Shown here in pieces: positions 44,966 through 63,737 of a stretch of 64,000 bases of DNA. This stretch comes from Candidatus Woesearchaeota archaeon (GTDB taxonomy: Archaea; Nanobdellota; Nanobdellia; Pacearchaeales; GW2011-AR1). Position numbers and translations under genes: made by a program. The stretch is taken from contig CAZSPD010000001.1 in the NCBI GenBank assembly GCA_964608765.1, positions 147,223-211,222 on the forward strand, written 5' to 3'. The notes beneath the pieces were generated by a model. The model saw only the letters and a program-made list of their open reading frames with translations, was not told the DNA's origin and ran no database searches. How positions within the stretch are numbered: the stretch's first letter is position 1; the number at the start of each line of letters is the position of its first letter.

Positions 44966-45023
44966 AAGATAAGTTTATGAAATAAGTTTTTATATTTTAG
45001 TATATTGAAAAACACGATAAAAT

Positions 45024-45113
45024 GCCCCTGTAGTTCAATCGGATAGAACCTCTCGTTGCGGTAAAGATGTTTGCAAATTCGGGAAAATCGGAGTTCGAGT
45101 CTTCGCAGGGGCA
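45024..45113 (+). tRNA. tRNA-Arg(GCG) with an intron of about 17 nt after position 37
   Basis: Hand-folded. Acceptor GCCCCTG/CAGGGGC, D arm GTTC/GAAC, anticodon stem TCTCG/CGGGA with loop TTGCGG. Intron about 45062-45078. T arm CGGAG-TTCGAGT-CTTCG, discriminator A, no encoded CCA. Confidence 0.75.
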
Positions 45114-45197
45114 TTTGGTAAATAAGTTGTAGTGTTTTAATTTTAATATAATTTTAAAAGCAGAAAAGTATTTAAATTCATTATCTTTGAAAAGATA

Positions 45198-60685: not shown

Positions 60686-61900
60686 ATGAGAGGTAGATTA
60701 AATTCTAAAGGAATGTCTGCAATTGTTGCAACTTTACTAATTATTTTACTAAGTATGTTCGCAATTGGAGCATTTTGGATTGTTATAAAAAACCTTTTAG
60801 TAAGTCAAACTGATATTTTAGTTACAAAGCAAGAATTTTTCTCAGAAAATGTAGGAATAAAATCAGTAAATATAGATGGGAGTAAAGTAAGTATTTCTTT
60901 AGGAAGGTCAAGTGGAGAATCTATAGATAAGAAAGATATTAAAGATATAGAGGTACAAGTTTATGTTCCTTCTGATATTGTGTCTGTAGTTGATTTGTCA
61001 GGAAGCATGGTTGTGTGCAGAGGAATAACCTCAACACAGTGTAGAAATTTAGGGGGAAGTTATAGTTCAGCAGGAGGATACTGCCACACTTTATCTGTAG
61101 ATAAAAAAGCTGCTTGTGAAAATTTAAATGGAGTCTGGAGAGATAGATTATCCCCTACAAGAGAGGCTAATAGGCAATTATTAGAAATGCTTTCTGAAGT
61201 AGAAGGCACAAGAATAGGGCTTGTAGCTTATAATGGTTCTATAATACCTCGTTTAAGCATAGATTTAACTGACAACATAGATGCATTAAATAATACAATT
61301 AATTCTTGGGAAAAAGCTATTGGAGGAACATGCATATGCTGTGGTATAAATGATGCAGTAAGAATGTTTAATAGTTTTTCTAGTCCAGCAACACCTAAAA
61401 AAATGATTGTTATGAGTGATGGAGAAGCAGAAACAAGATGTTCTAGTCAAAAGCCAGGGGATGCTTCTCAAGATGCAATTAATTCTGCTTGTACTGCAAG
61501 TTCTACTATGGCAAATTTAACTATTTATTCAATAGGGTTTGGAGAAGATGCAAATCATGAAACCCTAATAGAAATTGCAAACTGTGGAGATGGAGAAGAA
61601 TTTCAAGCATTAGAGGACATAGATTTAATTGAGATATACAGTCATGTTTCTCAGGAGATTATAACAAGATCAATTGTCTCTGATAAAATTAACTACATTT
61701 ATATACTCTTTTACACTCAAACTTCTAGTTATAGAGAAGTGATATATGAAATTCCTCCAAACTTAGGAATTAAAGCATATTCATTTAATTTAGCAGGAAA
61801 ATTAGAGGGAGAAATAATAAGAATTGAGGTTTACCCTGTTATTTTGCTTAAATCCGGAAAAGAAGAAATAGGTCCACTATTTGATTCATGGACACGCTAA
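60686..61900 (+). CDS. Archaeal pilin N-terminal domain fused to a von Willebrand factor A (vWA) domain
   Basis: 404 aa. KGMSAIVATLLIILLSMFAIGAFWIV (class III signal / Pilin_N-like). MIDAS elements VVDLSGSM, GGTCICCG and VMSDGEAE. Cys-rich insert after the DxSxS motif. Confidence 0.75.
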   Translation: MRGRLNSKGMSAIVATLLIILLSMFAIGAFWIVIKNLLVSQTDILVTKQEFFSENVGIKSVNIDGSKVSISLGRSSGESIDKKDIKDIEVQVYVPSDIVSVVDLSGSMVVCRGITSTQCRNLGGSYSSAGGYCHTLSVDKKAACENLNGVWRDRLSPTREANRQLLEMLSEVEGTRIGLVAYNGSIIPRLSIDLTDNIDALNNTINSWEKAIGGTCICCGINDAVRMFNSFSSPATPKKMIVMSDGEAETRCSSQKPGDASQDAINSACTASSTMANLTIYSIGFGEDANHETLIEIANCGDGEEFQALEDIDLIEIYSHVSQEIITRSIVSDKINYIYILFYTQTSSYREVIYEIPPNLGIKAYSFNLAGKLEGEIIRIEVYPVILLKSGKEEIGPLFDSWTR

Positions 61901-61915
61901 CAATAAAAGTATAAA

Positions 61916-63163
61916 ATGAAAAAGAGGGTTTCAAAAAAAAGAAGGGTAAAAATAAAAGATTCTAAAGCAATGTCTAATGTTATTGCAACTTTACTAATTA
62001 TTTTACTAGCTATTGTTTTAGTTATTATAATGTGGATAATAATAAAAGATTTAGTTGCTAAAGACACAGAAATTGCAGAGATTAAAACAGAATTTTTTGG
62101 TGAGAACATTCGTATAACTGCTTTAAAATTTGATGAAGATATTGTAAAAATATCTTTGCAAAAGATAGGAAGGAGAGACAATCCTAAAACAACTTTATGG
62201 AGTTCAGGAGAAATTAGTGGGAGTCTAGGTGTGGATATAATTTCAGTAGTTGATTTATCTGGGAGTATGATTTCTTGTAATAGCATTTCTGAACAATGTT
62301 GCAATGATGTTTTAGGAGCTACTAGTTATTCTTCAAGGAACTGCTATGGTTTGTCTGAAAATCATAAAGAGGATTGTGTTAATATTTGCAACGGTGTATG
62401 GGTGAACAGATTAACCCCTACAAAAGATTCTAACAGAGAGATACTTACAATTATTAATGAAATAGAAGATAGTAGAGTAGGAATTGTTGCTTACAATGCA
62501 GGAATTATTAGCTCTTCTGGAACAGGCTTAACATCTAATACTGATATATTAAATAGTGTAATTGATTCTTGGGAAGTTGGAGGAAATACTTGTATTTGTT
62601 GTGGAATTAATGAAGCACTAAGGATTTTAGAGGAACAATCTCCAGAAAATAAGCTTAAAAAAATAATTGTTATGAGTGATGGACAAGCAAACACAAGATG
62701 CCAAGAGCAAGGAACAGGAGACCCTTCACAAGATGCAATACGTTCTTCATGCGGCGCATATTCTACACTATCTAATTTAACTATTTACTCTGTTGGAGCA
62801 GGAGATAATGTAAATGAGAACACACTCAGGGAAATCGCAAACTGCGGAAAAGGTGTTTATTTTCCTGCACTAGATATTTCAGGACTAATAGAAGCATATA
62901 GAAACGTTATTGGAGAAATAAAAACAAACTACATTACATCATATAGTAGATTAGATTACATTTATATTGTATTTAAAAATGAGACTTCTTCTCACATTGA
63001 GAAAATTGCTAATATCCCTAGGAATTTAGTAATAAGAACATACTCTTTTGATTTAACTGATAAATTAGAAGGTAAAGTAGTAAGAATAGAAATTTATCCA
63101 GTTATTTTACTAAAATCAGGGAAAGAAGAAATAGGGCCTTTATTTGATTTCTGGGATGCTTAA
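61916..63163 (+). CDS. Second pilin-N plus vWA fusion protein (tandem paralogue)
   Basis: 415 aa. KAMSNVIATLLIILLAIVLVIIMWII, VVDLSGSM, GNTCICCG and VMSDGQAN. The C-terminus YPVILLKSGKEEIGPLFD is identical to the upstream paralogue. Confidence 0.75.
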   Translation: MKKRVSKKRRVKIKDSKAMSNVIATLLIILLAIVLVIIMWIIIKDLVAKDTEIAEIKTEFFGENIRITALKFDEDIVKISLQKIGRRDNPKTTLWSSGEISGSLGVDIISVVDLSGSMISCNSISEQCCNDVLGATSYSSRNCYGLSENHKEDCVNICNGVWVNRLTPTKDSNREILTIINEIEDSRVGIVAYNAGIISSSGTGLTSNTDILNSVIDSWEVGGNTCICCGINEALRILEEQSPENKLKKIIVMSDGQANTRCQEQGTGDPSQDAIRSSCGAYSTLSNLTIYSVGAGDNVNENTLREIANCGKGVYFPALDISGLIEAYRNVIGEIKTNYITSYSRLDYIYIVFKNETSSHIEKIANIPRNLVIRTYSFDLTDKLEGKVVRIEIYPVILLKSGKEEIGPLFDFWDA

Positions 63164-63194: not shown

Positions 63195-63353
63195 TCCCTC
63201 CACCAAGATTCGAACTTGGGATCTTCCGGGTACTGCTTTTTATTTACAGATTCCTTCAGGAATGGCTTATCGTGCTTCATCCTAATCCAAAATGGAATGT
63301 CTGCACTAGACATAATCTACAGCCAGACGCTCTAACCACTGAGCTATGGAGGG
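63195..63353 (-). tRNA. tRNA-Tyr(GUA) with an intron of about 86 nt in the anticodon loop
   Basis: Hand-folded. C1:G72 acceptor CCCTCCA/TGGAGGG (archaeal Tyr identity pair). D arm GCTC-AGTGGTTA-GAGC. Anticodon stem TCTGG/CCGGA with CTGTAG. T arm CCAAG-TTCGAAT-CTTGG. Discriminator A followed by TTTT. Confidence 0.8.
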
Positions 63354-63527
63354 ATTATTGGTTTTGTTTTTCCCACTCTCTCTGCGGTTTACCATTAGAT
63401 GTTTAGTTCTAGGTTTTAACCACTGAGCTATGGAGGGATTATTGGTTTTGTTTTTCCCACTCTCTCTGCGGTTTACCATTAGATGTTTAGTTCTAGGTTT
63501 TAACCACTGAGCTATGGAGGGATTATT
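63333..63527 (-). repeat. Perfect 84-bp tandem repeat (2.3 copies) duplicating tRNA-Tyr nt 1-21 plus upstream sequence
   Basis: Identical units at 63334-63417 and 63418-63501, with a partial unit at 63502-63527. Each carries AATAAT + CCCTCCATAGCTCAGTGGTTA on the minus strand. Confidence 0.95.
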
Positions 63528-63546
63528 AAAATAAGTGGTGTAATTC

Positions 63547-63556
63547 TTTTTTAAAA
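63547..63556 (-). promoter_or_regulatory. TATA-like box upstream of the first (truncated) tRNA-Tyr 5' copy
   Basis: Minus-strand TTTTAAAAAA ends 26 nt upstream of the C1-equivalent (63521) of the distal partial copy. No comparable box precedes the real gene. Confidence 0.4.
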
Positions 63557-63737
63557 CTTTGTCTTTAGAATATATTATATCCTCTACAAAATAGAAGAGT
63601 TTAAAAACTTCATGATACATAAAAAAACATAAAATGAGGTCAAAAATAATTGATGAATTAGACTTCTTCGAAGAGGAAGATTTAGACCAGGTTATCGATG
63701 ATTTAGGTCTTGATGACTAATTTTACTCACATTTCTT

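Follow-up and report, generated by a model that had tools for sequence, protein, structure and literature searches.

The subject of this work is the tRNA-Tyr(GUA) gene of a Candidatus Woesearchaeota archaeon (GenBank assembly GCA_964608765.1, contig CAZSPD010000001.1) together with the tandem repeat that precedes it. Both lie near one end of a stretch of 64,000 nucleotides (positions 147,223 to 211,222 of the contig), which is called the window throughout and to whose numbering coordinates refer unless a related locus is named. The window is AT-rich (about 28% G+C), carries the genes for the ribosomal proteins S28e and L24e and has its nearest relatives, according to a scan of species-representative genomes, among metagenome-assembled genomes labelled Woesearchaeota or Pacearchaeota; related contigs and loci are given by our labels (L001 and so on). 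Read on the minus strand, a promoter-like AAAG-TTTTAAAAAA is followed at a spacing of 19 nt by two copies of a repeat unit, the hexamer AATAAT and the real tRNA-Tyr gene (Table 1). Each unit consists of AATAAT, nucleotides 1-21 of tRNA-Tyr (CCCTCCATAGCTCAGTGGTTA) and a spacer of 57 nt.

For positions 63333-63527 Tandem Repeats Finder reports a period of 84, 2.3 copies, 100% matches without indels and a score of 390, which bears out the perfect 84-bp tandem repeat and the unit anatomy proposed in an earlier, sequence-only reading of this DNA. The tRNA-derived fragment comprises the 5' acceptor strand, U8/A9, the 5' strand of the D-stem and the D-loop, and its identity to the gene ends abruptly at nt 21. 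Together with AATAAT it forms a 27-bp direct repeat of a tRNA terminus that is present three times. That the proximal copy alone continues into a full tRNA had likewise been stated correctly, as the Rfam tRNA model matches 63353-63195 only. In the upstream fragments (63360-63527) cmscan against Rfam found no tRNA match even at E<=10, so that a tRNA pseudogene or a tandem tRNA gene copy was rejected, no cloverleaf remnant beyond the 5' part being detectable; at the gathering threshold and at E<=10 no known RNA family other than tRNA was found on the array. A Logan contig from a separate short-read assembly (L001, SRR21159524) is identical to the window through the tRNA and ends at window position 63362, three bases (ACC, the 3' end of the spacer) past AATAAT. 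Such a stop coincides with the branch expected in the Logan graph, for which we take k to be 31, if the spacer is present at least twice.

Table 1. Features of the repeat array and the tRNA-Tyr gene, in the direction of predicted transcription
Feature	Position	Strand	Basis or remark
Promoter: BRE-like AAAG (63560-63557) and TATA-like TTTTAAAAAA (63556-63547)	63547-63560	-	sequence and relatives
Distal repeat core R1: AATAAT and copy of tRNA-Tyr nt 1-21	63501-63527	-	identical to 63333-63359
R1, AATAAT	63527-63522	-	
R1, tRNA nt 1-21	63521-63501	-	
Spacer 1 (57 nt)	63500-63444	-	
Hairpin 1, apical part (AAACCTAGAACTAAACATCTAATGG), stem ACCUAGA/UCUA..GGU	63476-63500	-	RNAfold
Anti-fragment 1 (TAAACCGCAGAGAGAGTGGGA)	63455-63475	-	imperfect inverted copy of tRNA nt 1-21
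Linker 1, A-rich, unstructured (AAAACAAAACC and AATAAT)	63438-63454	-	unpaired in all folds
Second AATAAT and nt 1-21	63443-63417	-	
Fragment 2 alone	63417-63437	-	
Spacer 2	63360-63416	-	same sequence as spacer 1
Spacer 2, apical part	63416-63392	-	
Spacer 2, anti-fragment	63391-63371	-	
Spacer 2, linker	63370-63360	-	
Third AATAAT	63359-63354	-	directly before the real gene
AATAAT and real tRNA-Tyr(GUA)	63195-63359	-	Rfam RF00005, 52.3 bits, full length 63353-63195
tRNA-Tyr exon 1	63353-63317	-	
tRNA-Tyr intron (86 nt, position 37/38)	63316-63231	-	
tRNA-Tyr exon 2	63230-63195	-	

Upstream of the array, TTTTAAAAAA, the TATA-like part of the promoter, is located 25 nt from the distal fragment and is preceded by an element resembling a transcription factor B recognition element (BRE). 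A motif AAAG/AACC-TTTAAAAAAG-AATTA is kept at the same place in L008, L029 and L066; the distance between promoter and first fragment is the same in the window, L008 and L029, and the same distance separates promoter and tRNA in L066, which is free of units. No TATA-like sequence is present 24-30 nt upstream of the inner copies, where GAGAGAG is seen by eye. The element is the only conserved promoter for the whole array and the tRNA. The sequence-only reading had described it as the only TATA-like box, correctly spaced for the distal copy; the spacing is confirmed and the word "only" was a slight overstatement, as a second AT-rich, TATA-like stretch (ATATAATATAT) is situated at about 63580-63570. 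Transcription would start within the distal AATAAT, about 26 nt from the centre of the TATA-like box. With its single conserved promoter spaced for the distal copy, the arrangement is most naturally read as producing a leader of about 170 nt with two extra tRNA 5' strands, in agreement with the approximately 168 nt put forward before. A gene for the RNase P protein p30 (PF01876) is present in the related Pacearchaeota contig L062.

The spacers themselves are related to the tRNA. Each of them contains TAAACCGCAGAGAGAGTGGGA, an imperfect reverse complement of the 21-nt fragment (termed anti-fragment in the following), which pairs with nt 11-20 and with C1-C3. A single unit is folded by RNAfold at -18.6 kcal/mol (z = -2.3) via the helices C1-C3/GGG, an internal loop, CUC/GAG, GUGGUU/AACCGC and the apical ACCUAGA/UCUA..GGU, and in the window 17 unpaired, A-rich nucleotides follow each hairpin. 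In the ensemble calculated for the full precursor, nt 11-20 of each fragment are paired with their own anti-fragment at a mean probability (P) of 0.84-0.85. The fragment closes a hairpin in all of the 16 units tested (z = -1.7 to -5.5). In an alignment of nine units with a break at nt 21 (alignment A1), standard pairs occupy 85% of the pair cells as compared to 33-42% after shifting the 3' partners by 1-3 columns, and three pairs are changed on both sides. The clearest compensatory case is provided by L029, in which U19-A is replaced by C19-G through changes that occurred together in the real tRNA, the extra fragment and the anti-fragment. The apical stem also covaries in relatives (ACCU/AGGU versus AUCU/AGAU). 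In L028, L036, L029 and L063 the hairpin cores are 85-97% identical, as compared to 30-67% for the linkers and 71-87% for the introns. Judged from these comparisons the evidence for conserved pairing is good; with the 5' strand constrained by the tRNA, there is little room for covariation.

Units of the same architecture are found in front of tRNA genes in other genomes. Scanning the species-representative genomes for the tRNA-Tyr 3' end yielded six full tRNA-Tyr genes and one lone 3' fragment (L007). L008 is syntenic with the window and exhibits at least three fragment copies with a period of 64 and a different but alignable spacer, its array holding an assembly gap of 100 N; L006 has one unit with a break at nt 14, and L002, L003 and L005 have none. 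When metagenomes were scanned for two copies of CCCTCCATAGCT at a distance of 41-101 nt, 39 loci were obtained, most of which are unrelated repeats. The AT-rich tRNA-Tyr loci with units are 11 in number: L013, L016, L018, L026, L028, L029, L034, L036, L038, L042 and, found by a different route, L063. Look-ups of homologues of the neighbouring vWA domain protein provide a sample that was not chosen by tRNA features. Here, L057-L059, L061 and L066 have zero units, L063 and L065 have one and L064 has none; by eye, the distant L068 features a degenerate leader hairpin resembling fragment and anti-fragment. Roughly one quarter to one third of the sampled lineages carry the module, an estimate based on about 12 lineages.

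Two types of module can be distinguished. The break lies at nt 21 in L008, L018, L038, L026, L028, L034, L036, L029 and L063/L065, and this type, to which the window belongs, is built from nt 1-21, a short apical stem and the anti-fragment. In L006, L013 (three units), L016 and L042 (two units) the break lies at nt 14, and nt 1-14 are followed by one or two near-perfect hairpins and the anti-fragment. The D-loop is delimited by just these break points, nt 13/14 on one side and 21/22 on the other. In L013 and L042 the several units have unrelated spacers and a common architecture, every spacer containing an anti-fragment. All related units have an A-rich linker of 8-20 nt, and the identity between extra and real copy always covers nt 1-14. 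A CRISPR-like repeat-spacer array was considered and discarded: the spacers in the window are identical, and those of L013 and L042 differ but each carries an anti-fragment. The tRNA-Asp gene of L063/L065 (L063 13433-13567, plus strand) is likewise preceded by its own nt 1-15 at -63, an anti-fragment (CCTAAACCATCGA) and a linker of 10 nt; it is the one gene with a module among six non-Tyr tRNA genes checked in the fetched contigs. As tRNA-Asp has the same architecture, explanations specific for tRNA-Tyr, namely C1 as a poor initiating nucleotide or mimicry of the tRNA for tyrosyl-tRNA synthetase (TyrRS), were dropped. Modules of fragment and anti-fragment, whether homologous or analogous, thus recur in front of tRNA-Tyr across many Woesearchaeota-like genomes and in one case in front of tRNA-Asp. 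Unrelated hairpins occupy the same leader position in L057, L004, L038 (also listed above with the nt-21 modules), L064, L002/L005 and in front of the tRNA-Asp gene of L008. Because this includes several module-free relatives, a leader hairpin as such may be favoured, which is speculation.

The number of units ranges from zero to three or more among relatives. L063 and L064 are identical over 1500 of 1500 positions upstream and 180 of 180 downstream and differ by one 64-nt unit (one versus zero), and L028 and L034, which show no difference in 1285 + 400 nt of flanking sequence, contain two and one units, respectively. The difference between L063 and L064 cannot easily be an assembly collapse. 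Since the L063 unit core is 97% identical to that of L029, the state of L064 would most simply represent a precise loss between direct repeats, and the two identical units in the window probably are a recent step in an ongoing process of gain and loss. Slippage, named as one alternative in the sequence-only reading, or unequal crossing-over explains the step from one to two units well. Absence of the repeat or its variation without consequence in close relatives had been named there as an outcome that would count against the proposal; copy number does vary, zero included. The gene order vWA (plus), tRNA (minus), a 28-aa open reading frame (ORF, plus) and M10 peptidase (minus) is common to the window, L008, L057 and L061, in which two, at least three, zero and zero units are present, respectively. 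Furthermore, the neighbouring vWA proteins of module-bearing lineages are only 45-61% identical to that of the window.

We consider it somewhat more probable than all other readings together (about 0.55) that the repeat in the window arose by recent two-fold tandem amplification of an older, recurrent, dynamic and dispensable structured leader module of Woesearchaeota-like DPANN archaea. Such a module would be composed of nt 1-14 or 1-21 of its own tRNA with 0-8 nt of native leader, a variable apical hairpin, the anti-fragment and an A-rich linker of 8-20 nt. Transcription from a single promoter would turn the whole array into about 170 nt of 5' leader, in which each unit folds onto itself into a hairpin of 55-67 nt and thereby ties up the duplicated D-arm strand. 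The linker would offer a single-stranded approach to the true +1, where cleavage by RNase P would remove the leader. Copy number would drift by unequal crossing-over or replication slippage between direct repeats of 21-29 bp, and the founding event probably was an inverted-plus-direct duplication (template switch) at the quasi-palindrome of the D-arm. The module is dispensable: a required function is disfavoured because it has been lost in L064 and is absent from whole lineages. Pairing of the extra strand appears to be the main target of selection, and any positive role, for example as a protective or insulating 5' hairpin, would be hypothetical.

Several observations weigh against this interpretation. 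Insulation of the extra fragments is incomplete in the model, with no more than 3-4 pairs for their nt 1-7. The partition function calculated for the entire precursor gives the 3' acceptor strand a pairing probability of P = 0.40-0.44 with the real copy as compared to 0.22-0.37 with each of the two extra ones, and the strand is predicted to reside on an extra copy about as often as on the real one. The anti-fragment of the window binds the real 5' strand at -14.6 kcal/mol as compared to -18.6 kcal/mol for the extra copy, and in the clade formed by L026, L028 and L036, where the extra copy has G18A opposite a C, this order is even reversed. Hairpin cores of the window and L008 have diverged more than their introns and are 52-73% identical to those of the other loci. 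Evidence for compensatory change is modest, with weak covariation statistics from nine sequences. The metagenome scan selected for loci with two copies and is uninformative with regard to prevalence, and the difference between L028 and L034 could be an assembly collapse. Start site, read-through and the RNase P step are all predictions from sequence.

Competition of the extra 5' strands for the 3' acceptor strand is thus predicted to be thermodynamically possible, as the sequence-only reading had proposed; the fragments would not be free decoys, since they are partly sequestered by their own anti-fragments. Conversely, an initial view of the hairpins as fully insulated decoys was softened in light of the partition-function results. 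In L028, L034, L036, L042 and L063 the distal copy even dominates pairing with the 3' acceptor strand, since the real 5' strand is an equally possible partner for the anti-fragment. It has to be kept in mind that nearest-neighbour models of RNAs of 250-350 nt omit tertiary contacts of the tRNA and the order of folding, and the predicted competition may not occur.

The same figures could be taken to indicate a leader switch or rheostat, in which extra fragment (1), anti-fragment (2), real 5' strand (3) and 3' acceptor strand (4) engage in alternative pairings (1:2 plus 3:4 versus 2:3 or 1:4) and the number and strength of the units tune the share of processable tRNA. The anti-fragment binds either copy nearly equally well, the 3' acceptor strand of the window is split among the copies (0.40/0.37/0.22) with dominance of the distal copy in the five relatives just named, the anti-fragment C of L026, L028 and L036 pairs with the real G18 and is mismatched to A18 of the extra copy, and the compensatory change in L029 keeps the pairing. 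A ligand or a trans-acting factor is not evident, the module was lost from L064 with its identical flanks and is absent from L002, L003, L005, L057, L061 and L066, and the calculations skip tertiary contacts and folding order. We therefore regard such a switch as rather unlikely. A comparably low likelihood is assigned to the opposite extreme, neutral mutational debris, according to which the D-arm quasi-palindrome of highly transcribed tRNA genes triggers template-switch duplications and the RNA fold is not selected at all. Apparently independent origins (the nt-21 type of tRNA-Tyr, several nt-14 types with unrelated spacers, tRNA-Asp), break points at the edges of the D-loop, differences in presence and copy number between contigs with identical flanks and the perfect identity of the two units in the window would all be consistent with it. 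It does not account for a hairpin core that is much better kept than the adjacent linker in lineages as distant as indicated by their vWA proteins, nor for the compensatory changes, and modules persist in many lineages even though the zero-unit state cannot be escaped by crossing-over.

Direct repeats of a tRNA 5' terminus are a known signature of integration in archaea, as exemplified by the tRNA-Thr of Caldiarchaeum (PMC3293823), and the array could accordingly be seen as the footprint of a mobile element, the direct repeats being attachment (att) sites and the spacer an element remnant. Remote or lone tRNA-Tyr pieces in L063-L065 (692 bp away across an ORF), L016 (5') and L007 (3') would fit this notion. 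The spacers are only 32-86 nt long and non-coding, neither mobile-element genes nor an integrase were found in or beside the array or in the syntenic loci, and relatives without units show the same synteny. Junction and spacer gave no match in 2.9 million viral contigs, and the nine matches of the 18-nt fragment all fall into unrelated phage tRNA-Arg genes. Moreover, an att scar leaves the inverted fragment copy and the covariation unexplained. At the window locus, integration or excision, an alternative already considered in the sequence-only reading, is thus not supported, and we judge it improbable. Doubtful to an even greater degree is an intron in disguise, with the distal fragment as the true 5' exon and everything up to the gene body cut out by the splicing endonuclease, so that an RNase P step would not be needed. 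It could be inspired by the promoter spaced for the distal copy, by a true D-loop intron at position 15/16 in L004 (GCUC/GAGC, h' = 10), by the identity of extra and real copy over nt 1-14 in every case and by the self-complementary AGCU (nt 9-12), which might form a central helix of 4 bp with a cut after nt 14 and is accompanied by an inner helix of 6 bp in L006. An in-phase search at 12 loci returned AGCU/AGCU only, without any flanking helix in the window (h = 0, h' = 0) and with h' of 0-1 in the 11 relatives except for L006 (h' = 6); the script used does detect the anticodon intron (h = 5, h' = 2) as well as the D-loop intron of L004 (h' = 10). The proximal copy is contiguous with the gene body, splicing is not needed for a continuous tRNA, and the extra copies of L026, L028 and L036 bear G18A in the conserved GG of the D-loop. 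Splicing of the extra copies was therefore rejected for the window locus, a usable bulge-helix-bulge being absent from all of the 12 loci except L006. Finally, there is very little reason to believe in an assembly artefact, in which the true locus would have one unit or none. The repeat is perfect and stems from a metagenome-assembled contig, L008 contains its 100-N gap and L034 may be collapsed relative to L028. Collapse of repeats is a far more frequent assembly error than their expansion, L001 holds the end of the spacer (ACC) followed by AATAAT and the tRNA and stops at the expected branch, and the same architecture occurs in more than ten separate assemblies.

The leader module favoured here has partial counterparts in several known systems. 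Its closest formal analogue is the tyrT-tyrV array of Escherichia coli, in which we find a period of 178, 3.1 copies and 95% matches, the last 19 nt of tyrV recurring at steps of 178 nt under the annotated rttR/tpr. In both cases tandem units lie beside a tRNA-Tyr gene, carry a terminal tRNA fragment each and are co-oriented with the gene; the E. coli array is co-transcribed with the tRNA and released by processing, and its copy number is set by unequal crossing-over. As far as can be taken from work cited in PMC4986893, rtT RNA derives from the tyrT transcript. In contrast to the window, where a 5' fragment is repeated upstream, the bacterial array repeats a 3' fragment downstream and thus represents a mirror image. 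The two arrays are unrelated in sequence, and the RtT RNA model (Rfam RF00391) has no match in the window locus, neither at the gathering threshold nor by E-value. We are not aware of an inverted fragment copy in the E. coli units; no search aimed at it was made.

The closest archaeal precedent is the tRNA-Thr locus of Caldiarchaeum, where an insert with a recombinase gene separates a 5' fragment from the tRNA gene 1.8 kb downstream (PMC3293823). There and at attachment sites of the SSV and pNOB8 type, a copy of the 5' terminus lies upstream of the intact gene as in the window (tRNA-Thr-F in Caldiarchaeum). Integration-repeat loci are heterogeneous within a population and have been linked to intron gain and gene splitting (PMC3293823). 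They span kilobases and contain a recombinase gene, whereas the repeats of the window flank 57 nt of structured non-coding sequence, are arranged in tandem, include an inverted fragment copy and are devoid of element genes. A further resemblance exists to archaeal D-loop introns of the bulge-helix-bulge type and to split and permuted tRNAs, in which the D-loop is broken and the insert is complementary to the end of the 5' exon. Unlike these, the window locus has junctions devoid of a bulge-helix-bulge, an intact gene body and inner copies that lack promoters of their own; furthermore, the spacer is complementary to the fragment itself and not to a partner leader, as would be expected for a split tRNA. 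Structured pre-tRNA 5' leaders removed by RNase P share with the module a hairpin followed by a single-stranded stretch before +1. To our knowledge, a leader made from the tRNA's own 5' strand and its complement, or a tandemly amplified one, has not been described. A limited search of the literature on RNase P in Woesearchaeota and on tRNA introns and split tRNAs in DPANN archaea revealed nothing on such leaders. We file the locus as a combination of two known kinds, tRNA-terminus repeats and structured pre-tRNA leaders.

Rearranged tRNA-Tyr pieces occur elsewhere in the material analyzed. The tRNA-Tyr gene of L004 (minus strand) has a second intron of 36 nt in the D-loop (15/16) with a relaxed bulge-helix-bulge (GCUC/GAGC, h' = 10) that lacks an outer helix. 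In the extract analyzed, it starts about 128 nt upstream of the single tRNA 3'-end match of the locus and begins with a hairpin of a U-run and an A-run, like the hairpins after nt 14 in L013 and L042. In L063 (11289-11301; also in L064 and L065), a promoter and tRNA-Tyr nt 1-13 are found 692 bp upstream of the gene across an ORF for 178 aa. L016 is a locus with a 5' fragment only, a promoter-like sequence and one nt-14 unit, and L007 (3330-3384) has a lone 3' fragment (T arm and acceptor) after a second copy of TGGAGGGAT. The lone pieces are possible split-gene pieces or rearrangement relics. Because remote 5' fragments with their own promoter exist in L063-L065 and in L016, the 5' end of the tRNA-Tyr gene is a hot spot of rearrangement.

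It is conceivable, with a rather low likelihood in our estimation, that the modules represent a living stage from which non-canonical introns and split tRNA genes arise in the wider lineage including Nanoarchaeum. An inverted-plus-direct duplication at the D-loop would create a leader hairpin with an anti-fragment complementary to the end of the would-be 5' exon; deletion of the linker and the second fragment would then produce the order fragment, hairpin, GAGC... and gene body, that is a D-loop intron with helix-bulge-helix as in L004, and remote 5' pieces equipped with a promoter, such as those of L063 and L016, would result from insertion or rearrangement between the copies.

The anticodon intron of the tRNA-Tyr gene has a canonical bulge-helix-bulge (CUGU/GCAG, h = 5, h' = 2), and TTTT directly follows the discriminator base of the tRNA. 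With 86 nt the intron is unusually long, and it is 71-88% identical across the window, L008, L028, L029, L036, L057, L061, L063 and L066, with the shared blocks GGACAUUCC and AUGAA(A/G)C..GAUAAGCC and a hairpin AUUCC-UGAA-GGAAU. This strong conservation across lineages suggests that the intron may itself be functional, for instance by serving as a guide RNA or by binding a protein. The match of a C/D-box snoRNA model to it is below threshold and at chance level (E = 1.2). Because of the 86-nt intron in the anticodon loop, ARAGORN misses the tRNA-Tyr gene of the window, and it also misses all other intron-bearing tRNA-Tyr genes. A second intron-bearing gene, tRNA-Arg(GCG) at 45023-45114 (plus strand), is found by ARAGORN, is missed by a default Rfam run at the gathering threshold and reaches 45.9 bits with permissive filters only. 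Its promoter TTTATATT is located about 27 nt upstream, and no copy of its own 5' end was found upstream of it.

Tandem paralogous vWA domain proteins with an N-terminal flagellin- or pilin-like signal are encoded next to the tRNA-Tyr gene, two in the window (60686-63163, plus strand) and five in L066 (7327-13937). The block is preceded by a conserved 460-aa protein and an L7Ae-S28e-L24e cluster, and the tRNA-Tyr gene is situated at its end in either orientation. The vWA gene convergent with the tRNA has no T-run of its own before the tRNA, and the strand opposite each linker (63360-63376, plus view) reads TTGGTTTTGTTTTT, an oligo-T run that could serve as a terminator for it. The conserved 28-aa ORF of the shared gene order (63634-63720, plus strand) lies between the tRNA promoter and the upstream peptidase-like gene and specifies a very acidic peptide (MRSKIIDELDFFEEEDLDQVIDDLGLDD); gene calling gives an ORF of equal length in L057-L059, and L008 has an alignable sequence. 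On the minus strand an ORF of 104 aa (63306-63620) with the peptide repeats NNPSIAQWLKPRTKHLMVNRRESGKNKT spans the 5' part of the tRNA and both units. We rejected it as a real gene because it is an artefact that results from the phase of the repeat; spurious gene predictions are likely to arise from it.

Both repeated tRNA termini and disrupted tRNA genes are familiar as such. We found no description of a conserved leader element that combines a tRNA's own 5' strand with its complement, occurs on different tRNAs, varies in copy number between near-identical contigs and breaks at D-loop positions. Annotation pipelines may mishandle such loci because ARAGORN missed the tRNA-Tyr gene and gene callers placed spurious ORFs across the array. 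The break positions in the D-loop coincide with intron and split positions in relatives, the lineage of the window being, as we take it, the one that contains Nanoarchaeum. The locus offers a test case for how duplicated tRNA strands are kept from poisoning folding, for whether the copy number of a leader element tunes tRNA supply in genome-reduced archaea and for the origin of non-canonical introns and split tRNA genes.

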